From the IMG/VR virus record IMGVR_UViG_3300046167_000870: DNA of 64,000 nt. The stretch is one strand, 5' to 3'. The notes under the pieces were generated by a model. The model was not told where the DNA came from. It did no database searches and saw only the letters and a list, made by a program, of their open reading frames with translations. The DNA comes from a virus. Positions 3,208 to 19,542 of this stretch are shown piece by piece; position 1 is the first letter of the stretch; each line of letters begins with the position of its first letter. The translations under genes and the position numbers were made by a program.

Positions 3208-4133
3208 ATAGATAGTTTTTGTTCCATTAAATTATAATAGGTTAAAGGAACTGTTTTTTGAATCAGTTTTGTGAAATTTTTAAAACCCATTTCACTCGGA
3301 TCCTTATCTTGTAAATCTACAAGATAGACTTCTTTACCTTCTGCCATTAATTTTTCACAGAATTTTAAAGCTTGTTTAATTGCATCCCTATCTAACGCAA
3401 TATAAATTTTGTCTACTACTGAAGTAACTATTTTCTTCATTAAGTTACTTTGAATGTTTTTACCTAATAAAGGTATTGCATTTCTTTTTATAGCCATAGC
3501 ATCAAATAGTCCCTCACATAATATAATTGGTAAATTCCAATTAATAAAATGTTCGTTAGGGATTATGTCTCTTGATACTTGAGGATTTCTATATTTTATA
3601 AATGCATCCTTTTCAAATGAACGGGCGGTATAATAATTTATATTTCCATCTTTATCATAAGTTGGTAATATAATCATGTTTTTATATAAACCATCTTCAC
3701 AATAACCAATATTATATTTACTAATATCCGTCATACTAATACCGCGTTTATTTAAATACGCTAAGGCATGGCGTTTAATTATACTATTGTTATCTGACTG
3801 GTCTAAACGTGTATATTCGCTTGGTAATTTTAATACATTTACAACTTTTTCTTTAGTAGTATATGTAACATCCTTTACATAAGTTTTTGCTTCAGCTATT
3901 TTATCTTGTGATGCTCCTGCTTTTCTAAGTAAATGTAATATGGATTTACCTTTTTTATCACATACCCAACAATGCCATGGATTATTACCTTCTTTATTTT
4001 CAGTAAAATTAATTTCTAATTTAGGTTTGTGATGATTACAATGAGGACAAGTATATGCCATATTGCCACGGGCAGTCTGCTTGCCTGTACCTAATACTGA
4101 ATTTACTAAAGTAACTAATAACTGGTTTACCAT
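3204..4133 (-). CDS. DNA primase (Zn finger plus TOPRIM)
   Basis: CPHC...HCWVC zinc finger, CEGLFDAM and LDRDA TOPRIM motifs. Start moved to ATG 4133, just downstream of a promoter. Confidence 0.9.
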   Translation of the reverse strand: MVNQLLVTLVNSVLGTGKQTARGNMAYTCPHCNHHKPKLEINFTENKEGNNPWHCWVCDKKGKSILHLLRKAGASQDKIAEAKTYVKDVTYTTKEKVVNVLKLPSEYTRLDQSDNNSIIKRHALAYLNKRGISMTDISKYNIGYCEDGLYKNMIILPTYDKDGNINYYTARSFEKDAFIKYRNPQVSRDIIPNEHFINWNLPIILCEGLFDAMAIKRNAIPLLGKNIQSNLMKKIVTSVVDKIYIALDRDAIKQALKFCEKLMAEGKEVYLVDLQDKDPSEMGFKNFTKLIQKTVPLTYYNLMEQKLSI

Positions 4134-4139
4134 AACGAT

Positions 4140-4170
4140 ATAATATACATTAATGTATTTTAATTTCCAA
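4140..4170 (-). promoter_or_regulatory. Early-type promoter TTGG-N17-TGTATATTAT (primase)
   Basis: Conserved spacing; ends 6 nt before ATG 4133. Confidence 0.6.
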
Positions 4171-4635
4171 AGGGTCTTCATATTCAATATCCTCTAAATC
4201 TTTAGTAAAGAATTTACCTAGGATATTATCATTGAAAAATTCATCCGGTCTTTCTAACACCTGATATAACATTTGGTATTTTAATTCAAAATAAGTTAAT
4301 GCTTTTTTATTAGGTACACATTTTAATATAGTACGTTCAAATTCATCTTTTTTTCCTTCACGTAATAATTGTTTAATATCTTTTTGGGAACCATAATAAT
4401 TCTTCCAATCCGATTCTTTAACTGCTATTTTATATGAAGGGCGACGACCAACTACTCCTGTTAGGGCAGCTAGTTCTTTTTTCCCAAGTTTTACTTTTTT
4501 AGTAAATTGTAAAACTTTTTTTCCGATATATGATTTCCCTGAAGGTATGTGTTTGTTTATATAAACGAATCCATAAGTGTTTTCTGGGAACTGAGTGATA
4601 TCGACCATTTTTTGGTTTTGATAGGTCCAACTCAT
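4150..4635 (-). CDS. GIY-YIG nuclease-like protein (Seg-like)
   Basis: GFVY...SYIGKK, YYGS, FERTIL, E...Q and a C-terminal NDNI. Confidence 0.7.
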   Translation of the reverse strand: MSWTYQNQKMVDITQFPENTYGFVYINKHIPSGKSYIGKKVLQFTKKVKLGKKELAALTGVVGRRPSYKIAVKESDWKNYYGSQKDIKQLLREGKKDEFERTILKCVPNKKALTYFELKYQMLYQVLERPDEFFNDNILGKFFTKDLEDIEYEDPLEIKIH

Positions 4636-4680
4636 AATATTTGTTTTAGTTAATTTAAGTTAACGTAACGTTAATAAATA

Positions 4681-5941
4681 TTAATTTTTATTATTTAATA
4701 TATAATTTTTAGCATATAATACTCTCTTTCCAATGTCAACATTTACATTTTTGACATATTTAGAATGAACCCACCAATCCTCATATGGGCTATTTTCATC
4801 AGGAGAAATATTTTCTGCTACTAAAACATAACCTGCTTCAGTAAGTAATTGTTGAGATTTGCTTTTATAACTTTTAGTATTATCACAATAGTAATCATGT
4901 TCATATGTAATAACTCCAAATTCTAATTTATCAAATGGAATTCTTTCTAATGTTCTATATGTGTTATATGCAGGATCAACATCTAATTGTAAGTAATCTA
5001 TTTGACGAGTTCCAATATAATTATCTGCAATATCTAGATAGTCAGCTGATAATGAATTTTGATCTAAAATTGTATCAAGACTTCTTCTTTTCTTCCATTC
5101 CTCTATAAATTCTTTAGATATGTCTAAAGATGCTCCTTTCCATCCCCACTGTGTAAGTAAAAGTGTATTATTACCATATGTCGGATGTCCTGCTCCTATT
5201 TCTAAATAAGTACCATTTTTCTTTCCATTTAAAGCAGTTAAAGCAAATAAATCCTGATAACATTGTGAATAATTTTCTTCAACTAAATTTGCACCTTTAA
5301 ATTTTTTAGATAATGTTTTATAATGTGTTTTTTTATAAGGTAATAAATCATGCCATGTTGTTAATACAGGTCTTTCTTTAATTAAATCAAAATTAATACA
5401 ATTATTTATAACAAGTTCTCTATGGTTTTCATCTACATAAGGATCATTATATAATTCTAACCATAATTTATGTGATTTATCTCTTTGACCTATATACCAA
5501 CATACAAATGCTTTTTGAAATTTTAATTCCCAATCACCTTTATAACCAATATCATATGGTAAAGGTTCTTTTCCTATATGTTGTAGACCTAAATCAGCAT
5601 ATAAATTAGCAGTTTTCCAATCCTTTCTACTACTATACCATTTACATAAAAATAAATAACCTTCAGGTCTAGTAGGGTAAATATGCTATAGCCGTTTCTA
5701 ATTGACCTTTTTCATAATTTGCTCTACGTGTAGTTTTATTTAGTTGGAGCCATGTTTTTAAAATACCATTATAAGCTAGTATAGGATCAGTATCATGTGT
5801 TAATTCTGATGCTCTTAAAAAATAAGATAACGCAGCCGCTCCTTGACCTATGTTTTCATACTCTTGACCTAATTCAGCATTTATATAAGGATCTAAAGGA
5901 TCCTGAATGTATTTGTGTAAATATTCTTTTAGTCTTTCCAT
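4681..5941 (-). CDS. TPR-like N-terminus plus FkbM/Methyltransf_21-like SAM methyltransferase, about 419 aa, +1 frameshift at 5675-5677
   Basis: After correction: LPTRPEGY...NYSQCYQDLF...GTYLEIGAGHPTYGNNT...GWKGASLD...IDYLQLDVD...ITYEHD...EDWWVH. Most of the gene is missing from the ORF track. Confidence 0.8.
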
Positions 5942-6957
5942 TATAATCCGTTATTTGTCCATGACCTTCTATTTAACCACCCTAAATTGTCTAATAATTT
6001 AGTTGGCATTTTTAATGCATAAGCAGCATTATCTTGATAACCATATGTAATAATAAAATTATCATCTTTTAAAGCTAAACCACAAGCAAATTCAATTTTA
6101 GCTGCCATGAATTTAAATGGTTCTGATACTGCTTCTAAATTCCAATCTTTATCCCATATAACAAACCTATGATAATAGTGAGCATCTTTATGTTGTCCTG
6201 GGTTGTGATAAAAATCTACTTCATGTGTTACACATATTCTACTTCCATTTTTCCAAGGTATAACTTGTGACCCTCCTCTTAATTCAAAAGGAACTTCAGC
6301 ATTATATTCTTTTGTTATAACAATTTCACTTGTTTTATTAACTGGGTCTATTTTAGCTATTTCTAGGTTATTAGTCCATTTGATAAAATGCATTGGCATG
6401 TCTAATATAGGCATCCAATTTTTTTCTAAATAAGTTGGTTTTGGTGGTTCAATTCTATCTCTAGTTACTTCTTCACATACATTACTAGTCCAATTTATTT
6501 CACATAACTCCATTCTACCTTCACCATCAGGTTTTACATCACGTCTTACACCACAAGCATATAATATATCATTCCATCTAAATACCCTAACATCTTCTAA
6601 TCCAATAAAAGTCCATACAGGTTTGATATCATGTTTTGAAGTATCAATTTTTTGATGTGTTTTAACTTCTAAAGTATCAGGGTCTAATTTACATAAATAA
6701 TTTCCTGTTCTTAATACAACATCATCTTCAGGGTTTAAATAAGCTAAACAACCCCAAACACAATAAAAGTTTTGGTTAAATTCACTATGATATAAAGAAT
6801 AATGTACGTGTCTAATATTAGCTATAATATCATCATTATCATCTATAAAAACCGATACATTACATAAACCGGTACCATCAGTTAAGTCTCCTGGGATAAT
6901 GAGAGGTGCTATAGAACCACCATTATCTATTACTAATTTTGCTAAATTATCTATCAT
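5941..6957 (-). CDS. Five-bladed beta-propeller glyco-enzyme (GH130/DUF377/GT108-like)
   Basis: Motifs GLEDVRVF, EKNWMP, LRGGSQ, IEFACGL and YGYQD. Confidence 0.65.
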   Translation of the reverse strand: MIDNLAKLVIDNGGSIAPLIIPGDLTDGTGLCNVSVFIDDNDDIIANIRHVHYSLYHSEFNQNFYCVWGCLAYLNPEDDVVLRTGNYLCKLDPDTLEVKTHQKIDTSKHDIKPVWTFIGLEDVRVFRWNDILYACGVRRDVKPDGEGRMELCEINWTSNVCEEVTRDRIEPPKPTYLEKNWMPILDMPMHFIKWTNNLEIAKIDPVNKTSEIVITKEYNAEVPFELRGGSQVIPWKNGSRICVTHEVDFYHNPGQHKDAHYYHRFVIWDKDWNLEAVSEPFKFMAAKIEFACGLALKDDNFIITYGYQDNAAYALKMPTKLLDNLGWLNRRSWTNNGL

Positions 6958-6960
6958 ATA

Positions 6961-7554
6961 TTATTTATAATGTCCTCCACCTAACCATAATACGAAAGAT
7001 TTTCTGGTTCCCCTAGTAACTGGTGTAACTCTGTGCATCATATAAGAAGGGAATAAAAACACACAACCAGCATTTCTTTCAGCTTGTATAAAAGGACCGT
7101 TCATACTTCCACCTCTAAATAATTCTAAATTACCACCTTCATATTCATCTGGTTCTGATAGTTGAACTGTAATAGATACTTTTCTTAATGATAATTCTCT
7201 TGGACCTATATCAGCATGCCAATCATAATGACCAGCAGGTGCATGATATTCGGTATATTGAATTTGTTCTGGTATTTGGTGTAAATCAAATTTCCAAAGT
7301 GAATTATTAGCTTCTATAGCCATATTTGCTAGTTTTTCATATAACCAAAACCAATCATCATTTTGAGGAATCCACTTAATATTAGATTTTCTATTTGTAT
7401 CTTTATCACCAGCAGCGGTTGATGCTATATGCCAGGGTAAACTTTTAATGTTTTTAGATATTTTTTTTAATTCATCTTTACTAAATCCCTCTTTATAATA
7501 GAAGTAATTTTGTGAATCTGTTTGTTCTTGTTCAAATGTATAGTTTAAGTTCAT
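6961..7554 (-). CDS. 2OG-Fe(II) oxygenase (P4Hc/PKHD-type hydroxylase)
   Basis: WHAD (HxD), RKVSITVQLS, YEGG, FPSYMMHRVTPVTRGTRKS. Confidence 0.9.
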   Translation of the reverse strand: MNLNYTFEQEQTDSQNYFYYKEGFSKDELKKISKNIKSLPWHIASTAAGDKDTNRKSNIKWIPQNDDWFWLYEKLANMAIEANNSLWKFDLHQIPEQIQYTEYHAPAGHYDWHADIGPRELSLRKVSITVQLSEPDEYEGGNLELFRGGSMNGPFIQAERNAGCVFLFPSYMMHRVTPVTRGTRKSFVLWLGGGHYK

Positions 7555-8444
7555 TATAGATCTTTTATATTAAATATATTTTCGGTTTTTGTATATGGGA
7601 TATTATCCAATGGTTCTTGTAGGTTATAACCACTATAGCAATTCATATCTGTATGTAATTCATAAGGATTAGCTTTAATATTCTCATGAATTTCATAACC
7701 TAAAACATCAGGATTTGTTGTTATCCAGCATACAGTAGAAGGTAATTCTAAAGCTGCTGCCATATGTTGTGCAAAACTATCTATTAATATCCTTTTATCT
7801 GCCTGTAATAATAATGAAATTATACCTCGTAAGTTAAATTCTGCTGGTATTGCTCCTTCATATGATTGAGGTTGACTAGAATGTTTAATATAATAAATAG
7901 TATAATCATCTTTATACTTTTCTATTAATTTTTTAGTTAATTTTAATGGTAAATCTCTTGACCAATTATAATATAAAGGTTTTGTATAATAACTAATTAG
8001 CTGGATATGTTCATTTTTTGCTAATGCTCCACCATGAGGATGGATTACTAATATAGGTTTTTTATTTATTAGCTTTACAGGAGTATTTTTTTCTTCTTCA
8101 CTAAGATATAATTTAGGTTTTTCACCATTATATTCTAAATCATACATTTTAGCCCAAATTTCATATATGCTAGCCTTACTGCTTATGTAATCGGGTTCAT
8201 TATAGACCTCCTTTACTAATATTAAACAATTATCTAAATTATTATGTACATATTTTTCTAAAATATCAACTCTTCCTTCAAAATCAGTTAATATATCTAA
8301 GTGGGGATTATTAAAGAATATATCTTTAGCATCTGATATTACTATTATTTTATCATTAGGATATTTCTTTCTAAGTAATTCAAGTATTACAGTAGCAATA
8401 ATATTTTTACCTACCCCTCCGCTTATTTCAAAAACTATATTCAT
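7554..8444 (-). CDS. GT-B glycosyltransferase, GT9 (heptosyltransferase)-like
   Basis: GGVGKNI, IHPHGG, IDSFAQHMAAALELPSTVCW. Confidence 0.75.
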   Translation of the reverse strand: MNIVFEISGGVGKNIIATVILELLRKKYPNDKIIVISDAKDIFFNNPHLDILTDFEGRVDILEKYVHNNLDNCLILVKEVYNEPDYISSKASIYEIWAKMYDLEYNGEKPKLYLSEEEKNTPVKLINKKPILVIHPHGGALAKNEHIQLISYYTKPLYYNWSRDLPLKLTKKLIEKYKDDYTIYYIKHSSQPQSYEGAIPAEFNLRGIISLLLQADKRILIDSFAQHMAAALELPSTVCWITTNPDVLGYEIHENIKANPYELHTDMNCYSGYNLQEPLDNIPYTKTENIFNIKDL

Positions 8445-9118
8445 GCTTGTATATTAAAATTAATTACTGCTCTTTGTTTTTTACCATAAAATGGCTCTAC
8501 AGAATGTACTATATCATGCGGCCAAATTAATAACATTCCTGCTTTAGGCCTAACAAAATGTTTTTCTCCTCTAATATGAAAAGCAAATACACCACTATAA
8601 GGGTGATCTGGGTGAGGTTCTCCATCACTTAAATAATAACCACCTGAATACATTTTAGGTTTTTCTTCTTCATATTGCCATCTGTTATGATTATGAGCAT
8701 TATGTCCTCTACCTTCCGTTGGTTCATAATATTGTAACCAACTTTCTGTTACTGTACCTTCTTCACCTACTAATTCTTTAAAACCAGCTAATATTCTTCG
8801 TTTAATAACATCTACATCTGAGTTTTCTACGTCTAAAAAATCATTAGGTTTAACATAAAATCTACTTCCTATAGGTTGTAACTCATGACTTTCAATCCAT
8901 TCTTCTCGCCTATCATAATTAACTTCATATGTAGAATACCTTTCACTATCCCATCTATCAACTAATTCTTGACCCATTCTCCTTTGTTCTGCATCTAATA
9001 TTCGTAAACCAAAATCATAAGCTTTATTAGTTACAATATCATCTTCATATATCCTTTTGTAAACAGGGATAGGTGCTAAATTAAATATATTTTCCTTATT
9101 CGTTGGATGAAATATCAT
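8441..9118 (-). CDS. Putative 2OG-Fe(II) oxygenase (TIGR02466-like)
   Basis: SW...HNAHNH, SGGYY, PKAGMLLIWPHDIVHSVEP, RAVINFNI. Confidence 0.8.
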   Translation of the reverse strand: MIFHPTNKENIFNLAPIPVYKRIYEDDIVTNKAYDFGLRILDAEQRRMGQELVDRWDSERYSTYEVNYDRREEWIESHELQPIGSRFYVKPNDFLDVENSDVDVIKRRILAGFKELVGEEGTVTESWLQYYEPTEGRGHNAHNHNRWQYEEEKPKMYSGGYYLSDGEPHPDHPYSGVFAFHIRGEKHFVRPKAGMLLIWPHDIVHSVEPFYGKKQRAVINFNIQA

Positions 9119-9692
9119 AGTTTTCTAAAGTTGTTATATCCGAGTCTTCACCTGGGTTATGACCAAAATACGAAATATTTGCCTGGTCTCCACGGAAATC
9201 TTTAGATTTTCTTAAATCCCAAAACGCCCAATCTAAACCTCGTCTTAATTTAGAGACATTTTCTACATAATCAATCATCTTTTTAGCACCTTCAGGCCAT
9301 ACAATATAAGCTGCTACACTAGGTTCATTTGGAATAAACCAAAAGGCATCTAAATCTGTTACTGATGCTAATGTCTCAAAATAATTTTCTGGTGTTTTTT
9401 CGTCTTCATTTAAGAATACATCATCTTCAAATATAAAGAATGGTAAATCTTGTTTTGAACATTCTTCTAATAAATTTAAATGCATATATTGAGCACAAAC
9501 CATAGATGGGATATGTATTCCATATTTTTCGTAATCATTGCCTTTAATAAATTCTTTATCAAATTCTGTTAGTTCATAAGTTTTTCCATCTATTCCATCA
9601 CAAAATTCAAAATCTATATGTTGGAACATATGAGCTATTTTTTTACGTCTGTCTTCACGTTTTGGAAGAGATATTACTTTTAATTTATACAT
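9096..9692 (-). CDS. GT25 family glycosyltransferase
   Basis: VISLPKREDRR, FCDGIDG, IFEDDV, AYIV...GAKK, LDW. Confidence 0.85.
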   Translation of the reverse strand: MYKLKVISLPKREDRRKKIAHMFQHIDFEFCDGIDGKTYELTEFDKEFIKGNDYEKYGIHIPSMVCAQYMHLNLLEECSKQDLPFFIFEDDVFLNEDEKTPENYFETLASVTDLDAFWFIPNEPSVAAYIVWPEGAKKMIDYVENVSKLRRGLDWAFWDLRKSKDFRGDQANISYFGHNPGEDSDITTLENYDISSNE

Positions 9693-10467
9693 GCTCTAAA
9701 TAGGGTTTATAGTTAATTTTATTTTTTATATATTTATTAAATCTTTTTTGTGTTACTGATATAGTATAATTTTGATATTTTAATTCTTCATCTGATACAC
9801 CTAATACATAATCAGGTTGGTATTCATTTATATATTCTTCTAGTGAACAATTAGCATATTTCCACATTGCAAATTCTTCTACTAATCCTTTTATATCATT
9901 TTCTTCTACTATTTTAAGTAAATCTTTACCTAAATCTTTATTTCTAGAATAAACACAACCAAAGTTAGGAATGATTAAAGCATCTTGCCATACCCAATGA
10001 TAATGTTGTATTTGTGATTCTAATGTTGATAAATCATCAATTAAATTAAAATAAGTTTCATCATAATGTAAAATTGGGTGATGGTCAGGTATTGCTTCTA
10101 GTAATGCAAACATAGGTTCTTTATAATGAGCATATAAAGGGATTTGAGTTTCCTTTTGCCTCAGTAAATTATAAAAATCTTTATCTAATGGTTTTAAAAT
10201 AAGACAATCCCAATCTAACATTAATACTTCTCCCCAATGTTTTAGAGCTATATCTAATACTTGTAATTTTTTCCCATATATGTTATTACCTGAGTAATTA
10301 TTATCTCCCATAGCAACACAAGCGTATCCTCTTGATTCTAATTCCTCTTTATTTTTATCACCCCAAACATATACTATTTCATTATTATATAAAGGTTTTA
10401 TTGGAACATCTTCCCATTTATCTGAGTCATTACCCCACCAACTTCTTATTATTTTTATATTAGACAT
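9685..10467 (-). CDS. Putative GT-A glycosyltransferase (DxD), paralogue of 10460..11218
   Basis: MLDWDC, PNFGCVY and a C-terminal YLEHV shared with the neighbour. Confidence 0.6.
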   Translation of the reverse strand: MSNIKIIRSWWGNDSDKWEDVPIKPLYNNEIVYVWGDKNKEELESRGYACVAMGDNNYSGNNIYGKKLQVLDIALKHWGEVLMLDWDCLILKPLDKDFYNLLRQKETQIPLYAHYKEPMFALLEAIPDHHPILHYDETYFNLIDDLSTLESQIQHYHWVWQDALIIPNFGCVYSRNKDLGKDLLKIVEENDIKGLVEEFAMWKYANCSLEEYINEYQPDYVLGVSDEELKYQNYTISVTQKRFNKYIKNKINYKPYLEHV

Positions 10468-11218
10468 GCTCGAAATAATTAGTTATATCAACTTTAGTAT
10501 CTAACCATTTACTAAATTTTCTTGATAGTTTATGTATTCTAGTATCATATATTATCATTTGATCTGATCTACCTTTTACTACTCGAGGAACATATTTTTC
10601 AATATATTCTTCTAAAGTACAATCAACATAAATTAAAGTAGCAAATTCATCTACTACACTATTTAAATTATGTTCTAATGCTATATCAACTAATTTTTTA
10701 CCAAATGATTTATCTCTACAATATACAAAACCAAAATTAGGAGCTATTACTCCCTCTTCCCATTCCCATCCATACTTATTCATTCCTACTTCTAAATCTT
10801 CTAATTCTCTTAATAATGAGGGACTTTGATCTTTTACTAACATCTCCAATACAGCATTTTTAGTATCTTTATGTTGAATGTATAATGGTATTTGTATTGG
10901 TTTTTCTTTTAAAGAATCATAAAAGTTTTTATCAAATGGTTTTAATATAAAACAATCCCAATCTAATAATAATACTTCACCAAATTCTTGTAATGCTAAA
11001 TCTAAAGCTTGTAATTTTCTTCCAAATTTATTATATCCTTTTTTACCATCAAATTTTGTATCTTTTACTAATTTAGCTTCATATCCCAGTTCTTGAATAA
11101 ACCAAAATGATTCATAATCAAAACAGTATACTACTTCTTGTTCAGGATATAATGGTATTCTGGGTATTTCATGGTTTACATTACCACCCCATAATACTCT
11201 AATTATTTTTATTTTCAT
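10460..11218 (-). CDS. Putative GT-A glycosyltransferase (DxD), paralogue of 9685..10467
   Basis: LLDWDC, PNFGFVY, YFEHV. Confidence 0.6.
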   Translation of the reverse strand: MKIKIIRVLWGGNVNHEIPRIPLYPEQEVVYCFDYESFWFIQELGYEAKLVKDTKFDGKKGYNKFGRKLQALDLALQEFGEVLLLDWDCFILKPFDKNFYDSLKEKPIQIPLYIQHKDTKNAVLEMLVKDQSPSLLRELEDLEVGMNKYGWEWEEGVIAPNFGFVYCRDKSFGKKLVDIALEHNLNSVVDEFATLIYVDCTLEEYIEKYVPRVVKGRSDQMIIYDTRIHKLSRKFSKWLDTKVDITNYFEHV

Positions 11219-12176
11219 GATATTTGTCCCAATGTTTTTGCCATCTTACATCTTTTGTAAAAACTTCTCCAACCTTAAAATCGTCAACTAATTCTCTAAA
11301 CCATTTTTCTGTTTTTAAATGCATAGTGTTAATTTTATCTAACCAAATATGTTTAAAATTAACTTCTTTTTCTAAATCTGGGTTTTCAGGTAAGTACCAT
11401 TTTTCTGCTTTACCTTTATATCTTGTATGAGGTTCAACACAATTATGATGTGATAATGATATTTTATTAGTTAAAGTATTTACATGATAATCGTTTTCTC
11501 TAATAATATGACCTAAAATACCTTGATCAGTTAATAACCAAAACCATTCAGGTATATTTTCACCATTAGTTGTAACTAATTTTTTATGCCATTGATGATA
11601 TTCTTTTAATAGTTCTATGTTATTAAAACATAAGAATGATGTATTAGGTGACCAATCATCTACATTATAATTTTCAATCCAAGGTATATGAGTAATTTCT
11701 CTTTCAAATTTTTCTTTATCAAAGTAATAATAACCTCTACCTATTTCCCAATGTGCTATCGTTAAATCGTTAGTTCTAACATATTCAGGTAATTTTTCTT
11801 TGATTATCATATCATTATCAAGGAATACAAAAGGTTCTGTTTGATTTGCTAAACATTTTATTTTACCACTTGTCCAAAAATAAGCTGCATCTACTTTTGA
11901 TTTTGAATAACTATTTAAAAAATCTATATCTACCTCATCATATAGATCTAATATTTTAAATCTATGATAAAAAGCTGCTCCTACAGAATCAGTATATAAT
12001 TTAATAGGACCATTATGTCTTTGCCAATTTACTATAGATAATACTGTATATAGAATTTGATGATCAGTCATATTGTATGTGTCTGATTCTAGTCCCCTCA
12101 TGGATTCAAAACCATGGCCTCTTAACCTCTCTTTATGAAAGTAAGGTTTAGTCCAATTAACGTGTATAGCCTTCAT
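11199..12176 (-). CDS. Putative GT-A glycosyltransferase (DUF6734-like)
   Basis: LYTD, FWTSGKI, PFVFLDND, NTSF, DQG, FKHIW. Confidence 0.6.
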   Translation of the reverse strand: MKAIHVNWTKPYFHKERLRGHGFESMRGLESDTYNMTDHQILYTVLSIVNWQRHNGPIKLYTDSVGAAFYHRFKILDLYDEVDIDFLNSYSKSKVDAAYFWTSGKIKCLANQTEPFVFLDNDMIIKEKLPEYVRTNDLTIAHWEIGRGYYYFDKEKFEREITHIPWIENYNVDDWSPNTSFLCFNNIELLKEYHQWHKKLVTTNGENIPEWFWLLTDQGILGHIIRENDYHVNTLTNKISLSHHNCVEPHTRYKGKAEKWYLPENPDLEKEVNFKHIWLDKINTMHLKTEKWFRELVDDFKVGEVFTKDVRWQKHWDKYHENKNN

Positions 12177-13031
12177 TTAGTCTTTTTGTTTTATTATCCA
12201 GTCATCATATAAACTCCATTTATCTTTTTGTATAGAGTTAATACACCTAAATAAATACATCATTTCAGTATGATCTATTTCTTTTTTTAACACACCATAA
12301 TGCTTGTAATATAATGAAGATTCTTTGAGATTCCAAATACCTCCATCATCTACTATAGTACCATAATCTACATCTTTACAATTAAAAACGTTTTTGGATA
12401 ATGTTTTATGTGGGATATTTTCTTTATATAACATTTGTTTTAACATAAACTGTTCAGACAATATCATATAATTAGTATCCTTTACTCCCATTGAAGTAAA
12501 TTCTTTATGATTTTGTAAAGTTTGTTTAGCGTATTTATTAGCAAATTTATAATCAGGAAGATAGAATAAAGATACATTTGCTGCTCTATCAATTATATAG
12601 TCAATTGGTGTTGTTAATCCTTTACAATATTTAGTATTTTCTTTAGGATACCAATTATCTGATAATTCGTTATATGTAAATAGAACATTATCATTTAAAT
12701 GTTCATCTATGTTTTTAAATATTAAAAAATCATGATCAACAATTAGTATTGGGTTTGTTGCTTTACTTATTATTTTTGTTTTACTACTTGACCAAAATAC
12801 TTCCCTATCAATTTCATCATCATACTTTAAAGGTTTTATTTCATCAAATAAATCAAGTAATGGTGTTCCTTTATAATAATCTTTAGTAAGATCATCAGCA
12901 TATAGTACTGTTTTATGGTTAGGGTGATACCTTTTCCATAAACAGACGGATGCTGCTAATAGTAGTGTAAATTGTTTTGTATAAAAATCTTCAGAACGCT
13001 TAACGTTTTCAATTACCCATAATACTTCCAT
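12177..13031 (-). CDS. Putative GT-A glycosyltransferase (DUF6734-like), paralogue of 11199..12176
   Basis: LYAD, FWSSSKT, PILIVDHD, NVSL, EQ, YKHY. Start set at MEVLW (13031). Confidence 0.6.
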   Translation of the reverse strand: MEVLWVIENVKRSEDFYTKQFTLLLAASVCLWKRYHPNHKTVLYADDLTKDYYKGTPLLDLFDEIKPLKYDDEIDREVFWSSSKTKIISKATNPILIVDHDFLIFKNIDEHLNDNVLFTYNELSDNWYPKENTKYCKGLTTPIDYIIDRAANVSLFYLPDYKFANKYAKQTLQNHKEFTSMGVKDTNYMILSEQFMLKQMLYKENIPHKTLSKNVFNCKDVDYGTIVDDGGIWNLKESSLYYKHYGVLKKEIDHTEMMYLFRCINSIQKDKWSLYDDWIIKQKD

Positions 13032-13806
13032 AAACCTTTTTAAATGTAACATCAATTTTAGAATAATCTACCATTAAATATCCATCAGAATGCATAATAG
13101 ATGCTTGAGGTACTTCTTGTGCCATAACACCTTGAAATACTCCTTTACCATCTCTTTCTTGGTTTTTATAAGTCCAAGTATAAATGTTTATTCCTGATAG
13201 TGATCTACCAACTAATCTAATATTTTCTTTTAGTCTTCTATCTGATTTAACAATTCCAAATGCAGCATGAAGTGTATCTATATAAGCGAAGTTTTTACCA
13301 CCGTAAGTACTATTATAATACCAATTTACTGCTGCCGTTGATGTTAAAACTGTTCCAAATGCGTTTTCTAATCTCCAACCATTAAACTGATATCCATAAC
13401 CTGCAACAGCATTTGTTCCAATATAATTTTGAGTATTACTCATTGATTGGTTTTTATATGCTGCAATACTAGTTCCCATAGCTGCCTGAGCTGAAAAAGG
13501 GGAGGAGAAGGATATAACAGAAAGTGAAGAACCTCCACCTGACATTGCTAAATTAACATGAAACATTCTATCTTTATACCTATATCCTGTGTTCATTGAT
13601 ATATTAGAAGTACCTGTTTGTGTTGTATTTAATTTGGGATCTGTATTTTGTTTCCAAGCTGAGTATAAACTATAGTTTCCATTAACCCCCCAGTTAGAAC
13701 AAATGCCCCACATACCACTATAATACCCACAAGCTAATGTGGGATTTTGTATAGTTGAGGTATTAGATACCATGTGTAATTGACTAGTGACTTGTCCGTA
13801 GTACAT
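13009..13806 (-). CDS. Short fibre/tip protein with C-terminal peptidase S74 intramolecular chaperone
   Basis: SDRRLKENI...IYTWTY...GVMAQEV...VDYSKI. Confidence 0.8.
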   Translation of the reverse strand: MYYGQVTSQLHMVSNTSTIQNPTLACGYYSGMWGICSNWGVNGNYSLYSAWKQNTDPKLNTTQTGTSNISMNTGYRYKDRMFHVNLAMSGGGSSLSVISFSSPFSAQAAMGTSIAAYKNQSMSNTQNYIGTNAVAGYGYQFNGWRLENAFGTVLTSTAAVNWYYNSTYGGKNFAYIDTLHAAFGIVKSDRRLKENIRLVGRSLSGINIYTWTYKNQERDGKGVFQGVMAQEVPQASIMHSDGYLMVDYSKIDVTFKKVYGSIMGN

Positions 13807-13807
13807 A

Positions 13808-14350
13808 CTATATTAGGTCTTTTACATTACCTTCACCAAAAATATCCTTATAATGATTTTTAACTTTTTCATAAGTGTACTCAAAAAGGCTACCAGTAAT
13901 TATATTAATGTTTATTTTAGATTTAGTTACCATTTCACTTCCAGTAGTAATTGTTTCTATAGATTCTGTACGATAAGCTGATATTTCGTTACCATCATCA
14001 TCAAAATCAATATATTCTACTGTTTGATCTTCCCATGAAGAAGAATATGTTACTTGTTCTACTTGTACACTTTCAGTAAGTGGAAATTCTAATGGATAAG
14101 AATTATTATGAATTTCATCATCAAATGTATAGTTAGGAGATAACATACCAGAAGCATCTAGTCCTATATAATCTTCTTTATATACTGGGTGTCCTGATGA
14201 AGATTCTTTACTTACATAATGTTGTGTATTTGCAAGTATATCTCCTGTTGTTTTATGTAATACGTAATTTTCGATCCTAACATAGAAGCTACTTACTTCT
14301 CTATTAGCTCCTCCGTTTTCCGTAATTGAACCTGTAACTATAAATCCCAT
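13808..14350 (-). CDS. Hypothetical protein (possible fibre accessory)
   Basis: 180-aa acidic ORF, translationally coupled to the collagen gene; carries TGS/SSS motifs. Confidence 0.6.
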   Translation of the reverse strand: MGFIVTGSITENGGANREVSSFYVRIENYVLHKTTGDILANTQHYVSKESSSGHPVYKEDYIGLDASGMLSPNYTFDDEIHNNSYPLEFPLTESVQVEQVTYSSSWEDQTVEYIDFDDDGNEISAYRTESIETITTGSEMVTKSKININIITGSLFEYTYEKVKNHYKDIFGEGNVKDLI

Positions 14351-17300
14351 TATTTTTTATTTAATTTGTTTACTTTATCATTTAATTCTTTAATAGCTTC
14401 TATTAATATTGCTACTAATTTTTCATATTGAACTGTGATATAATTTTCACCTGTTAAACTAGCTCCTTTATCTCCATCAGCATCAAATGGTGCTTGTCTA
14501 ATTATTTCAGGGAAATGTTTTTTAACTTGTTGTGCTATTACCCCAATATGTCGATCTTTTTTATCATATCCAAATTGTTCTGCTAATTCATTAGATCTGT
14601 AATAAATACCATCTAATTCCATTACTTTATCTAAAGCACTTTCAATTCTACCTTCAATATCTTTTAATCTCTCATCTGAGTAATATGCAACAACATCACC
14701 TGTTGATCTTACTGTACCAAACTGAACTGTATCTGTAGTTCTAGTATATTGGTTCATCGCAGTAGCATAAGTATTTGATGTACCTGATGCACCTTTTGCT
14801 CCAGTAGGTCCTGTTCCACCTGTTGCACCTTGAGATCCTGTTCCTCCAGTACCACCTGCTTGACCTTTTTGTCCTTTAGCACCACCACCACCAGTTGGTC
14901 CTGTTGCTCCTTTTTGTCCTTTTGGTCCTGTTGGTCCTGTTGAACCACCTGAACCTGAAGGACCTGTAGCACCTTGAGGTCCTGTGTTTCCAGTTCCACC
15001 TCCTTGACCTTTCTGTCCTTTAGCACCCGTAGAACCTTTAGCACCACCGCCACCAGTTGGTCCTGTTCCACCTGTTGCACCTTGAGGTCCTGTTGAACCT
15101 GTTCCACCTGCTTGACCTTTTTGTCCTTTAGGTCCAGTTGGTCCTGTTCCTCCAGTTCCACCTGTAGCACCTGTAGTACCTTGTGGTCCTGTTGGTCCTG
15201 TACCTCCAGTACCACCTGTTTGTCCTTTTTGTCCTTTTGGTCCTGTTGCACCACCACCACCTGTAGCACCTGTTGTACCTTGTGGTCCAGTTGATCCATT
15301 TGAACCTCCTTGACCTTTCTGTCCTTTAGCACCTGTTCCACCACCTGGTCCTGTTGCACCTGTAGTACCTTGAGGTCCTGTTGAACCATTAGATCCATTT
15401 GAACCTGCTTGTCCTTTTTGTCCTTTTGGTCCAGTTGGTCCTGTTCCACCACCTGCTCCTGTAGCTCCTTTTGCTCCAGTAGGTCCTGTTCCACCTGTTG
15501 CACCTGTTGTACCTTGAGAACCAGTTGAACCTGTATTACCATTTTGACCTTTTTGTCCTTTTGGTCCTGTTGCACCACCACCACCTGTTGCACCTGTAGT
15601 ACCTTGAGAACCACCTGGTCCTGTTGCACCTGTAGCACCTTTTTGTCCTGTTGTACCTTGAGATCCGGTTGAACCAGTAGCACCTTTAGCACCTGTTGGT
15701 CCTGTTCCTCCAGTTCCACCTGTAGGTCCTGTTGCACCTGTAGCACCCTGAGAACCTGTTGGTCCAGTATTACCTGTAGCTCCTTTTGCTCCAGTTGGTC
15801 CTGTATTACCTACTGTACCTTGAGGACCATTATTTCCTTGTTGTCCTTTTTGTCCTTTCGTACCAGTAGTACCTTGTGGTCCAGTTGCTCCAGTTGGTCC
15901 TGTTCCTCCTGTAGCACCTTTAGCACCAGTTTCACCTGTTTGGCCTATAGCACCTTGTGAACCAGTAACACCTATTGAACCTTTTTGTCCTTTAGGTCCT
16001 GTTGGTCCTGTATTTCCTGTAGTACCTTGTGGTCCTGTTGGTCCATTAGCACCTTTTTGTCCTTTTGCTCCAGTATCTCCTTTATCACCTGTTGATACAA
16101 ATGAAATTAAAACATCTTCATTATTTGTAAATGGAGCAACTGCTGATCCTGCTTCATTTGTGATTGCTAATTCCCAATAACTTCCATCATCAGTTAAATC
16201 TGAAATAGCAAATGTTAAGAATTGTGTTGCATCCGTTCTATTAGAAATCCTAATATGTCCTTTAACAGCTGAAGTAACACTATCTATAGTTGAAAGTGTA
16301 CTTTCTATATTATTACCATCATCATCTGTAACATTAACATATGCTTTTGATGCTATATTTTGTGTTGTACTATTTAATCTTATTCTACCTGTGCCTGGAT
16401 TTGAATCCCCTGTTGCACTATCAAATGTATAATCAAACGAGTTACCACCAAAGTTACCATCTGTACCTTGTGTACCTGTAGCACCTTGTGATCCTGTTTG
16501 ACCTAATTGTCCTTTTTGTCCTTTTGCACCTGTAGTACCTTGTGATCCTACTTCACCTTTCTGTCCTTTTGTACCTGTAGTACCTTGAGCACCAGTTGGA
16601 CCAGTTGGTCCTGTTGCTCCTTTTTGACCAGTTGTACCTTGAGATCCGGTAGCACCAGTAGCACCTTTGGCACCTGTAACACCAACTTCACCTTTTTGTC
16701 CTTTAGTACCTATAGTACCCTGTGAACCAGTTGGTCCTGTTGGACCAGTTGCTCCTGTAGCACCTTTAGCACCTGTAGCACCTTGTGGTCCTGTAGGTCC
16801 TGTTGGACCATCATCACCAACTGCACCTTGTGAACCAGTAGGTCCTGTATTACCATTTGCACCTTGAGGTCCAGTAACACCTAATTGTCCTTTTTGTCCT
16901 TTTGTACCTATAGTACCTTGTGAACCTGTTGGTCCTGTTGGTCCAGTAGCACCTGTTGCACCTTTAGCACCAGTTGTTCCTTGTGAACCTGTTGGTCCAG
17001 TTGGACCATCATTTCCTACTGTACCTTGAGCACCAGTAGGTCCTGTTTGACCTGTAGCTCCTTTTGCTCCAGTAGGTCCTGTTTGACCTGTAGCACCTTG
17101 AGAACCAGTATTACCTGTAGCACCTTTTTGTCCATCTGTACCCTTGTGTACCTGTTGCTCCTGTAGCACCTTTAGCACCTGTAGGCCCTGTTGGTCCTGT
17201 AGCACCTTGAATACCTTGATCACCTTGATCTCCTTGAGCACCTTTTTGTCCTGTTGTTCCTTGTGAACCTGTTGGTCCAGTATTACCTGTAGCACCTTTT

Positions 17301-18247
17301 TGTCCATCTGTACCTTGAGCACCAGTTGGTCCTGTATTACCTACAGCACCTTGAGCACCTGTTGGACCAGTTGGTCCTGTAGCTCCTATAGCACCTTGAG
17401 CACCTGTAGTACCTACTGTACCTTGAGAACCTGTTGGCCCTGTTGGACCATCTGCACCTTGTGCACCAGTTGGTCCTGTTGGTCCTACTGCTCCTTTTTG
17501 TCCTTGGTTACCTACTGAACCTTGAGCACCATCTGCTCCTTGAGCTCCAGTTGGTCCTGTTGGACCTGTTGGTCCTACTACACCTTTTTGACCAGTTGTA
17601 CCTTGAGTACCTGTTGTTCCTTGTGGACCAGTAGGTCCTGTAGCACCTGTAGCTCCTTTTTGTCCATTTGTACCTTGAGCACCAACATCACCTTGATCTC
17701 CAGTAGCACCTTTAGCACCAGTTGAACCTGTTGGTCCTGTTGGTCCTGTTGCTCCTTTAGATCCTTGTGGTCCTGTAGCACCTTGTGGTCCTACTACACC
17801 TTTAGCACCTGTAGAACCTTGTGTTCCGTCAGCACCTTGTGCACCTGTAGGTCCAGTTAAGGATAAATCTGTTCTATATTTTATATCACCCGATGTATTT
17901 GAAACTAATATTCGAGTTTCTGATGTTCCATTTGATAAATTGTTTATATGTAAATTACTACCTGTAAGTGAAGTTGAAGCAACGATATTACTACCTGTAA
18001 TAAACCCTGCAGAGGTAATATTTCCAATTACATTAAGGCCACCTGCTGGATACCAAAATAGTTTACTTTGTGAGTCTTTATATAAAGTATCAAAATTATC
18101 TCCCGAAGATGTATCAAAAAATGGAATTTGATAAGCTTTAGAGGGTGATGATCCTGAACCTGTGGGACGTACGAAATACTTCCCTGCTTTAATTTTGTTT
18201 AAATCTGCATCACTACCGGATACAACTACTTTTTTCCAATTTGGCAT
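14350..18247 (-). CDS. Collagen-like fibre 1 with C-terminal S74 chaperone, about 1298 aa, +1 frameshift at 17141-17143
   Basis: N-terminus [12 protein letters not shown]; long GPT/GAT/GQK/GAK repeats; one globular insert; SDERLKDI...IGVIAQQV...VQYEKL...coiled coil. Confidence 0.9.
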
Positions 18248-18260
18248 GTCAATCTTTTTA

Positions 18261-18305
18261 TTATGGTTGGTTACTCATTGAGCCCACTTCCGTTATGGCC
18301 TATAA
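18261..18305 (-). ncRNA. Candidate structured 5' leader RNA of the collagen operon
   Basis: GC-rich 45-mer TTATAGGCCATAACGGAAGTGGGCTCAATGAGTAACCAACCATAA in AT-rich intergenic DNA; can be folded by hand into a small multi-stem junction. Confidence 0.35.
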
Positions 18306-18310
18306 TATAG

Positions 18311-18353
18311 TCATACATATGAATAATATACGGAAAAACAAATAAAAACTCAA
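18311..18353 (-). promoter_or_regulatory. Tandem promoters: early-type TTGA-N17-CGTATATTAT (18353-18323) and late-type ATATGTATGA (18320-18311)
   Basis: Variants of both motif families, upstream of 18247. Confidence 0.5.
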
Positions 18354-18359
18354 ATAATT

Positions 18360-19542
18360 TTATAATTGGAACCAGCCTGTTGGTTTAACATAAGGCGACA
18401 TACATGATCCAGTTCTTTCTACATTATGATTAATATTATTAGGGTCAATTGGGGAGAGAGAACGAGATACCATTAATTGAGTATACTGGTAAGTACTATT
18501 ATCTTGATAAGTAAATGGTGATACATAATGTATTTCTCGTGGGAAATCTGATGGTGATAAGGTTACTACGCTTCCTTCAATATTACCAGCTCTATTTACT
18601 ATAAATGATCTAACATAGTCATTTGCAGAATTAACATAAAAGAAAGAACTTGAAGCCCATTGAAATGGATAACTATAATTAGACTGAGATATATTTACAA
18701 CTGTACAATTTACGAATGATTTATTTGCAAAAGGATAAGGGTCAATACCTAACTCTTCCTCTATACAAAAAGAAGAGGTTGATGTTGCTGATGCCAAATC
18801 ATAGGGTCTAGATAAATGGAAAATAGTACAACAAGTCCACATAGGATCATTTTCTGCAGTAAAATCAACTTCTCTGTGGAATTGATATAAATGAGAACCA
18901 GTATAACCAAAAGATATTTGATCAACATTTTGAGTTAATGATTGGGTTACTGCTGCTATTCGTCTAACAGTTCCTAGTACTGGTGTTTAAAGTGGTTATA
19001 TCAAAATTTGAATTTAATTGATATTGTGTTATGTTTGATAATGCTGATCCTTGTCTAACCCCGAATTGTACCACAGAACCAGTATCTGGTACTTGTATTG
19101 ATTGTATAGCTCCAAATGCAGGTGATAATCCAGATCCTAATGTAGCTGCATTTAATGTTAACGATGCTGTATTATTAGTTGGACTTTGCCAAAGTTCAAA
19201 ACTACCAAGATTTGGAGCTGTAGAATCTGAGGAAGAATACATATACTGATAAACTAATTGTTTATATGGAGCACCATCTGAAAAAGATGAGGTACCCCAC
19301 CAACTAGTGTACATATAATGAACCAAACTAGCGTCACCACCATCATAACGTGAATTTATTGCTTGTTGTTGGTGATATAATCCACTATAATTTTTAAAAC
19401 TTTGATAATTTGGGAATTGTGCTGGGGTAGCAGTTGCAAAATCTCCTAATTCTAATTGACAAGTAAGTACAGGCCAATCAGCTTCTGATGTAACTTGCCA
19501 AGTTCCTCCTTGCATTACCCTAAAGAAATTTTGATTTGCCAT
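18360..19542 (-). CDS. Hypothetical virion-associated protein, about 393 aa, +1 frameshift at 18986-18988
   Basis: Correction joins ORFs 18964..19542 and 18360..18842 (…TTLTPVLGTVRRIAAVTQS…DPMWT); Ser/Thr-rich. Confidence 0.65.

Follow-up and report, generated by a model that had tools for sequence, protein, structure and literature searches.

What would a tailed phage do with a collagen gene that is followed by a long run of oxygenase, glycosyltransferase and methyltransferase genes? The question is raised by a 64,000-nucleotide (nt) stretch of DNA from an uncultured marine myophage (IMG/VR record IMGVR_UViG_3300046167_000870, hereafter the window), in which 13 genes, all on the minus strand, run from 18247 to 4681. 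Three of them code for a collagen fibre that carries an S74 domain, for an accessory protein and for an S74 fibre, and the other ten for soluble enzymes. Judging from the sequences and predicted structures, we think that this cluster is probably a late fibre-linked module with which the phage modifies its own collagen-like tail fibre, using co-expressed soluble enzymes in the cytoplasm. Prolyl hydroxylation would be the best-supported step of such a pathway, and methyl-mannosylation a plausible core step.

The cluster is exceptionally compact. At each of the 12 junctions the genes overlap by 1-47 nt or are at most 3 nt apart (for example 14350/14350, 12177/12176, 8441/8444, 7554/7554 and 5941/5941), and sizeable gaps are found only at the two ends, with 112 nt ahead of 18247 and 46 nt beyond 4681. 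The gene coordinates thus bear out an initial annotation of this DNA, which had described 13 co-oriented, overlapping or abutting genes. It had also placed promoter motifs at the head of the cluster and nowhere else, which holds for one enriched octamer. This promoter-like motif, CGTATATT, occurs seven times in the window against 1.4 expected, at 1882, 2081, 18325, 58789, 59253 and 63790 on the minus strand and 32019 on the plus strand, with six of the seven on the coding strand. Its sole copy within 4000-19000 is at 18325-18332, in the 112-nt gap ahead of the collagen start, and it could represent the -10-like element of a late promoter of the phage. A sigma-70 scan was uninformative in such AT-rich DNA (105 sites vs. 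84 expected), and scans for sigma-70 promoters and terminators gave no excess over shuffled expectation. The leader at 18260-18306 matched no Rfam family above threshold, the sole Rfam match nearby being an L20 leader at 18330-18423, with 22 bits against a gathering score of 59. From the tight packing and the single head motif, the 13 genes would be co-transcribed, and the same two features, with the enzymes packed on one strand behind the collagen, argue that the enzymes serve the fibre.

Were this so, relatives of the enzymes should also be found with collagens, and the initial annotation had staked its proposal on this linkage. The last two genes of the cluster encode a predicted five-bladed propeller (5941-6957) and a protein combining TPRs with an S-adenosylmethionine (SAM)-dependent methyltransferase (4681-5941). 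We took 217 loci from IMG/VR and JGI/Tara contigs, 172 of them unique (numbered with the prefix L below). A collagen open reading frame (ORF) lies upstream of the propeller in 69 of the 94 unique loci that have at least 3 kb of upstream sequence, and the exceptions include interrupted collagens or short S74 fibres that our filter missed. When equal amounts of DNA were compared in the first 80 loci, collagen was upstream in 33/45 (at least 3 kb) and downstream in 2/55; those 33 upstream collagens are all on the same strand as the propeller, and 16 end within 61 nt of its start. Linkage to collagen is seen in six of nine propeller clusters formed at 65% identity, and the T4-like cyanophage DSL-LC02 has three collagen genes directly adjoining the propeller/methyltransferase pair.

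The enzymes behind these collagens form a graded series. Of the 71 unique loci that extend at least 6 kb upstream, 42 stop at the core pair of propeller and methyltransferase, seven add a prolyl 4-hydroxylase (P4H)-type gene, eight have both P4H and a GT9-like gene (in some cases also the accessory protein or the S74 fibre), and seven have the full enzyme set as in the window. No cultured phage is nearly identical, as megablast of the cluster against cultured phages returned zero matches. The closest cultured relative is Flavobacterium phage vB_FspM_immuto, whose primase is 46% identical to that of the window. In immuto this genome position is taken by ordinary genes for fibres and spikes, with neither collagen nor any of these enzymes, and this joint absence also favors a role of the enzymes in modifying the fibre.

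The propeller and its partner are the constant part of the module. A predicted model of the propeller (pLDDT, the predicted local distance difference test score, of 79.5) has a five-bladed fold of the GH130/GT108 type, which makes it a candidate β-mannosyl transferase or phosphorylase and agrees with its earlier description as a β-propeller glyco-enzyme. The top Foldseek matches are Leishmania MPT-4 and MPT-2 and β-1,2-mannoside phosphorylases (E 7e-10, template modeling (TM) score 0.5-0.56), and no sequence-level match was found in Pfam or the PDB. The family is large, with 2687 homologues, mostly from marine and freshwater metagenomes, many of which are fused to a methyltransferase. A distant propeller (27% identity) was seen in the Actinomycetia phage DSL-LC01 (L097:5802-8332); its neighbors there are a TauD/TfdA dioxygenase and a methyltransferase, genes for replication and repair are close by, and no collagen gene is near.

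The neighboring protein of about 424 amino acids (aa), encoded by a gene split by a frameshift in the window, was described in the initial annotation as a TPR-FkbM methylase. The TPR part and the class-I SAM methyltransferase, with a LEIGAG SAM-binding motif, both stand, TPR_17 being above its cut-off in one relative. The FkbM assignment comes from the family: PF05050 is matched by 13 of 31 members (best E 3e-5), and fused relatives carry a precomputed PF05050 domain. The window protein itself matches Methyltransf_23 alone (E 0.009-0.015), without a PF05050 match, and BLAST found no similarity between it and the PF05050 domain of the fused relative P0105; single-sequence PDB searches with the propeller and the methyltransferase also gave nothing useful. 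A TPR and/or methyltransferase ORF follows the propeller on its 3' side in 79 of the first 80 loci, 97 of the 172 unique loci have a detectable methyltransferase domain, and in many loci the propeller, TPR and methyltransferase form one ORF of about 740 aa. The pair is thus conserved, often fused, and placed directly behind collagen genes. In one lineage (L035:5499-6899, also L038, L043 and L046) a WavE domain, of the lipopolysaccharide (LPS)-synthesis type, replaces the methyltransferase on the TPR protein behind the propeller, so the TPR part appears to be constant and different catalytic parts are attached to it. Animal collagen P4H likewise binds peptides through a TPR domain, a likeness that we mention as a lead.

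Which chemistry, then, would be directed at the collagen? The clearest candidate is the P4H-type gene (6961-7554), which encodes a 2-oxoglutarate (2OG)-Fe(II) oxygenase of the PiuC/P4H type. It matches 2OG-FeII_Oxy_3 (PF13640) with 50.6 bits against a cut-off of 27 (E 4e-13), belongs to phrog_61 and to the P4Hc/PKHD branch, and finds PiuC in the PDB (E 6e-8); the NCBIfam PKHD equivalog models scored far under their cut-offs. The HxD...H iron triad and an RxS site for 2OG are present, and H113, D115, H174, R184 and S186 are invariant in 61 homologues, which secures the P4Hc-type identity given earlier and leaves it a candidate collagen prolyl hydroxylase.

Were the collagen its substrate, a phage whose collagen lacks proline could do without the gene. 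We tested this prediction in 81 unique loci with a visible upstream collagen, 24 with the P4H gene and 57 without. Proline occupies 7-60% (mean 32%) of X positions in the loci with P4H, and 0-10% (mean 1.3%) in those without (Mann-Whitney p 9e-13), while it is essentially never found at Y. Among about 38 residue/position associations, X-position proline is the strongest (p 2e-12). With the window included (82 rows) and a cut-off of 6% proline, 25 loci have both gene and proline, none has P4H only, three have proline only and 54 have neither. The presence of the gene therefore tracks the X-position proline of the adjoining collagen, in line with the proposed hydroxylation of collagen by this oxygenase.

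Since related loci are not independent observations, the association was also followed along the propeller tree, on which the P4H state changes seven times. Six independent pairs are separated by well-supported branches; proline changes the same way in 4.9-5.5 of these and never the opposite way (sign test p 0.03-0.06). Every explicit sister contrast is in the expected direction. With the P4H-bearing locus first, the X-proline fractions are 0.36 (L123) vs. 0.05 (L125), 0.53 (L043) vs. 0.07 (L042), 0.21 (L162) vs. 0.00 (L167 and L172), and 0.33-0.44 (L197 and L199) vs. 0.00 (L031, L177, L188 and L191). The same procedure found no association of lysine with either P4H or the GT9-like gene, so it does not create associations by itself. 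A raw association of the GT9-like gene with lysine at Y (p 1.5e-6) disappeared under independent contrasts and was dropped; with phylogeny controlled, lysine at Y is not linked to any enzyme of the module. The initial annotation had proposed a second route, from lysine through hydroxylysine to galactose added by a GT25 enzyme. This route gained no support from covariation, and in L052, a locus with the second oxygenase gene described below (Oxy5), the visible part of the collagen has neither lysine nor proline.

The presumed substrate (14350-18247) is a collagen-like fibre of about 1299 aa with a C-terminal S74 chaperone domain of the self-cleaving type, and its gene is also split by a frameshift. 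Pfam detected Collagen (E 2e-71) and Peptidase_S74 (E 1e-11) in 14350-17322 and Collagen again in 17111-18247; matches to PF01391 have E-values of 2e-71 and 1e-38, and 254 Gly-X-Y triplets lie in runs of at least five. The Y position is 44-48% threonine and 11-21% lysine, and the X position 22-25% proline, as the initial annotation had described. This make-up was previously taken to hint at modification. However, threonine at Y with proline at X is usual in prokaryotic collagens (PMC8968730), so composition alone is no sign of it. The accessory protein (180 aa, 13808-14350) has no Pfam match, is coupled to the collagen stop codon, and follows collagen-S74 genes in 13 related loci. It is followed by the short S74 fibre (265 aa, 13009-13806). 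Peptidase_S74 was matched in three fibres of the window (E 1e-11 in the collagen fibre, 5e-9 in the short fibre and 2e-16), all of which keep the S-D-x-R-x-K motif, as SDERLK in the collagen fibre, SDRRLK in the short fibre and SDKRFK in the third; this intact motif supports the earlier prediction that the S74 domains cleave themselves off. The idea of a collagen coat gained no support. Because the genes sit in the tail and fibre module, the collagen is more likely a tail fibre. A large fibre upstream (19542-25135, minus strand) appears as a single collagen/S74 protein of about 1860 aa with two frame changes near 22664-22827; its Gly-X-Y register is interrupted many times by G-[PA]-D-N-S-T-Q, and it contains three globular inserts that resemble one another.

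The remaining enzymes are found in fewer loci and are of mixed certainty. The second oxygenase, Oxy5 (8441-9118), is a 2OG-Fe(II) enzyme of the Oxy_5/TIGR02466 type, matching PF13759 (2OG-FeII_Oxy_5) with 28 bits and belonging to phrog_81, with H139, H142, H144, H205 and R216 invariant; this settles its earlier listing as a 2OG oxygenase, while a single-sequence PDB search gave nothing useful. Six glycosyltransferases had been proposed, of which three are firm, two probable and one weak. The first firm assignment is the GT25 protein (198 aa, 9096-9692), with 57 bits against a cut-off of 24 for PF01755 in a match spanning profile positions 5-107 of 199, an invariant EDD motif (E89, D90 and D91), and, in the PDB, a weak match to a GT25 protein (E 0.025). 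The other two belong to a set of four that had been listed as DxD GT-A proteins. These paralogues, at 9685-10467 (a) and 10460-11218 (b, with a DWD motif), are 41% identical and have no Pfam match. The predicted structure of paralogue a (pLDDT 93.7) has a GT8-like, retaining GT-A fold, with glycogenin as its top match (Z 12.9, root-mean-square deviation 3.5 over 182 residues), followed by UGGT, XXYLT1, the Skp1 galactosyltransferase, NleB, PBCV-1 A64R and the GT-A domain of LH3. Paralogue b belongs to the same alignment (A2). K67, D85, D87 and E198 are invariant in this small family (143 clusters among 1.8 billion representatives), in which 11 of 49 members have weak Pfam matches to GT71, GT8 or GT77; GT8-like is thus an assignment by fold. 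Profile searches of the PDB with alignments A1, A2 and A5 returned nothing, the folds coming from structure prediction alone. No match to GT25 or the DxD paralogue was found in cultured phages with tblastn.

The other two members of that set are DUF6734 proteins, at 11199-12176 (DND motif; PF20508, 60 bits against a cut-off of 27; its Atlas clusters are DUF6734 and mostly viral) and 12177-13055 (DHD motif; 22 bits, under the cut-off of 27). They are probably GT-A glycosyltransferases as well, since hhalign of the DUF6734 family profile against the GT-A DxD family gave 66% probability (E 5.5e-5), while controls stayed below 1%. The weak assignment is the GT9-like, or heptosyltransferase-like, protein (7554-8444). 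Its PF01075 match (E 0.016) is under the cut-off and its best profile match in the PDB is 3tov (E 0.085), a single-sequence PDB search giving nothing useful; PF01075 is found in 45% of the members of its Atlas sister cluster, and JGI names its homologues heptosyltransferase. A second kind of fibre-plus-glycosyltransferase block is present on a Logan contig (L099:1-20768), where a 6237-aa S74 fibre, Thr/Ser-rich and not a collagen, has behind it on the same strand an island with an Anp1-like gene, a distant member of the DxD GT-A family, two GT7 and laminin-G fusions, and a radical SAM gene. A GT-A family member in an island directly behind an S74 fibre is consistent with modification of fibres.

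The gene order given in the initial annotation is correct and most of its enzyme identities are confirmed, but the collagen and TPR-methyltransferase genes are each broken by a one-base insertion. In the collagen gene one extra G (GGG at 17141-17143) joins two frames, and a near-identical repeat copy 170 nt upstream reads GG. The TPR-methyltransferase gene has a C too many (CCC at 5675-5677), where L013 and L017, both relatives, are one base shorter and read GCT TAT TTA CCT ACT AGA, an unbroken A-Y-L-P-T-R. The products are intact in relatives of 93% identity (collagen 1311 aa, TPR-methyltransferase 418 aa). Programmed frameshifting was considered for both breaks and rejected, because relatives read straight through the methyltransferase site with intact products and the neighboring fibre contains at least two further breaks. 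Sequencing or assembly errors or strain mutations are more likely. The same relatives (L013 and others) have an additional 345-aa gene between the DxD paralogue and GT25 (L013:6246-7283), which has no Pfam match and is missing from the window; these relatives also have a shorter S74 fibre gene (185 aa vs. 265 aa). Outside the cluster, a SegE-type GIY-YIG homing endonuclease (4150-4635, minus strand; Pfam E 3e-23) lies between the enzymes and the primase, as it does in L013-L016, and on the 5' side are more fibre, tail and structural genes.

Taken together, we suggest the following pathway. Fibre chains would be modified in the cytoplasm before or during trimerization. The PiuC/P4H-type oxygenase would hydroxylate proline at X (in G-P-T, G-P-Q and G-P-K), while the propeller and the TPR/FkbM-like methyltransferase, as the conserved core, would add a (β-)mannose-type sugar and then methylate it. 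Threonine is the likely acceptor, since this pair also adjoins collagens without proline. The GT-A, DUF6734, GT25 and GT9-like proteins and the second oxygenase may be lineage-specific additions that elaborate the glycan. Finally, the C-terminal S74 domain would nucleate the trimer and cut itself off. Collagen linkage, fusion of propeller, TPR and methyltransferase, covariation of P4H with proline, invariant catalytic residues, and the lack of membrane segments in every cluster enzyme all favor modification of the fibre, so the overall idea of the initial annotation survives in part, with enzymes tied to the collagen and a P4H that follows its proline, and without the lysine/GT25 route or the coat.

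Several observations weigh against this interpretation. The closest solved relative of the P4H-type enzyme is PiuC, which has no known substrate, and not a collagen P4H. Distant members of the family (about 30% identity) in cultured T4-like cyanophages such as Syn9, S-RIM2 and Syn19 directly adjoin the uvsW helicase gene and not collagen, a different conserved context. Belonging to the family is thus not enough to name the substrate, and the inference of a collagen substrate is limited to the subfamily of the window. The sign test is borderline at the values given above, and covariation could come in part from collagen and P4H moving as one recombination block, with fewer independent events than the propeller tree implies. 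No collagen residue is linked to the GT-A, GT25, DUF6734 or Oxy5 genes, GT25 being present in few loci. Two cluster genes are frameshifted in the window, and here the cluster borders a replication module (SegE and primase). Proximity to replication genes would suit hypermodification of DNA, in which oxygenases and glycosyltransferases alter phage bases to evade restriction, and DNA is a frequent target of phage glycosyltransferases (as cited in PMC12619734 and PMC10202952). We consider this very improbable, as searches of Pfam, NCBIfam and PDB sequences found oxygenases of the PiuC/P4H and Oxy_5 types and no TET/JBP-type match, linkage across relatives is to upstream collagen and not to replication genes, and the proline covariation would go unexplained.

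The main rival is that the enzymes remodel the LPS, capsule or envelope glycan of the host, for example to block superinfection or to keep progeny from sticking to debris, and lie next to fibres as part of a variable 'host recognition' island. This is how glycosyltransferases in the host-recognition cluster of pelagimyophages and cyanomyophages (PMC7029224) and the propeller ('MGP') of S-SCSM2R (PMC12801897) have been read, which also counts against our interpretation. The GT25, GT9 and GT8-like families include LPS enzymes, and the WavE domain on one TPR variant is of that kind. Host remodeling nevertheless seems unlikely to us: it leaves unexplained why P4H is restricted to loci with proline collagen and why the module sits so strictly on the same strand immediately behind collagen; the cluster has no membrane-bound initiating transferase, flippase, polymerase, sugar-nucleotide synthesis gene or membrane segment; and apparent late co-expression with structural genes fits superinfection exclusion poorly. 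Less likely again is that the proteins act on phage proteins other than the collagen helix (the S74 fibre, the accessory protein, the kinked fibre at 19542-25135 or other virion proteins), or act non-catalytically as fibre-assembly chaperones or tip proteins. Assembly factors are often encoded just 3' of fibre genes, the collagen fibre would have no obvious distal head after S74 cleavage, the GT-A member of L099 lies behind a non-collagen fibre, and in a minority lineage the propeller follows a small non-collagen Gly/Ser/Thr-rich protein. Yet no variation is seen at the catalytic positions of the oxygenases, GT-A and GT25, the fusions with a SAM-dependent methyltransferase suggest an enzyme that works inside the cell, and the proline covariation points at the collagen itself.

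More broadly, modification of phage collagen may be a widespread modular system in tailed phages of aquatic bacteria, which combines an X-proline hydroxylase with a propeller-TPR-methyltransferase that places methylated mannose-type sugars, and which would have arisen independently of the animal route and work in the bacterial cytoplasm. We offer this wider proposal tentatively, as slightly less than an even prospect. It would explain the abundant P4H gene of marine viromes that has been called 'cryptic' (PMC9301287). Few 'auxiliary' genes are commoner in marine phage genomes than those for prolyl-hydroxylase-like proteins and glycosyltransferases, and if the proposal is true, many of their annotations as host-surface or cryptic genes need changing. 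Post-translational chemistry would then underlie host recognition and fibre stability in abundant ocean phages, and hydroxylated or glycosylated collagen could be made in bacterial cells with a compact set of soluble enzymes. Given the covariation of gene and substrate, a few recombinant proteins would be enough to put the idea to a direct test.

How does this module compare with known systems? Our literature search for phage collagen with FkbM, hydroxyproline or glycosyltransferases found no paper linking these enzymes to phage collagen. In the Skp1 pathway of Dictyostelium and Toxoplasma, hydroxylation by the P4H PhyA is followed by glycosylation. This pathway and the chlorovirus PBCV-1 (P4H, and capsid glycosylation by A64R) resemble the module in bringing a P4H-family oxygenase and GT-A transferases to a protein, and both appear among the fold matches of the DxD paralogue; their substrates are not collagen, and the relation to the paralogue is one of shared fold only. 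The Leishmania GT108 enzymes (MPT-1, -2 and -4) and GH130 phosphorylases are the best structural matches of the propeller, with an identity of 10-17% at the TM scores given above, and the known enzymes act on free mannans, not proteins.

Two viral precedents support modification of the fibre. Virus-encoded modification of collagen is established for mimivirus, according to PMC9546862 and to Luther 2011 as cited in PMC8968730, and glycosylation of mycobacteriophage virions by phage glycosyltransferases is attributed to Freeman et al. 2023 in PMC12619734 and PMC12801897. Mycobacteriophage enzymes act on the phage's own structural proteins, as we propose here; in those accounts it is capsid and tail-tube proteins that are modified, at their C-termini, with no collagen, hydroxylase or methyltransferase involved, and the modification was shown experimentally, whereas ours is read from genes. 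In bacteria, Bacillus BclA is a glycosylated G-P-T collagen, and a P4H of Bacillus anthracis hydroxylates collagen-like peptides (PMC8968730). BclA thus shares with the window fibre a G-P-T-rich prokaryotic collagen, O-glycosylated in BclA and proposed to be so here, but it is bacterial, its rhamnose/anthrose pathway enzymes are not encoded beside the collagen in this way, and there is no propeller/FkbM pair. Closest in logic is mimivirus, a virus with collagens, a 2OG oxygenase and glycosyltransferases, in which L230 is a lysyl hydroxylase-glucosyltransferase and R699 a glucosyltransferase (PMC9546862, PMC12003778, PMC8968730). The animal pair of LH3/PLOD3 and COLGALT is echoed by the GT25 gene and by the LH3 GT-A domain among the fold matches of the DxD paralogue. 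In contrast to both, the window is from a tailed phage of bacteria, the residue signal is X-position proline and not lysine, and the oxygenase is PiuC-like and not LH-like. The core of the module, a GH130/GT108-type propeller with a TPR-FkbM-like methyltransferase, has no counterpart in the animal or mimivirus pathway.

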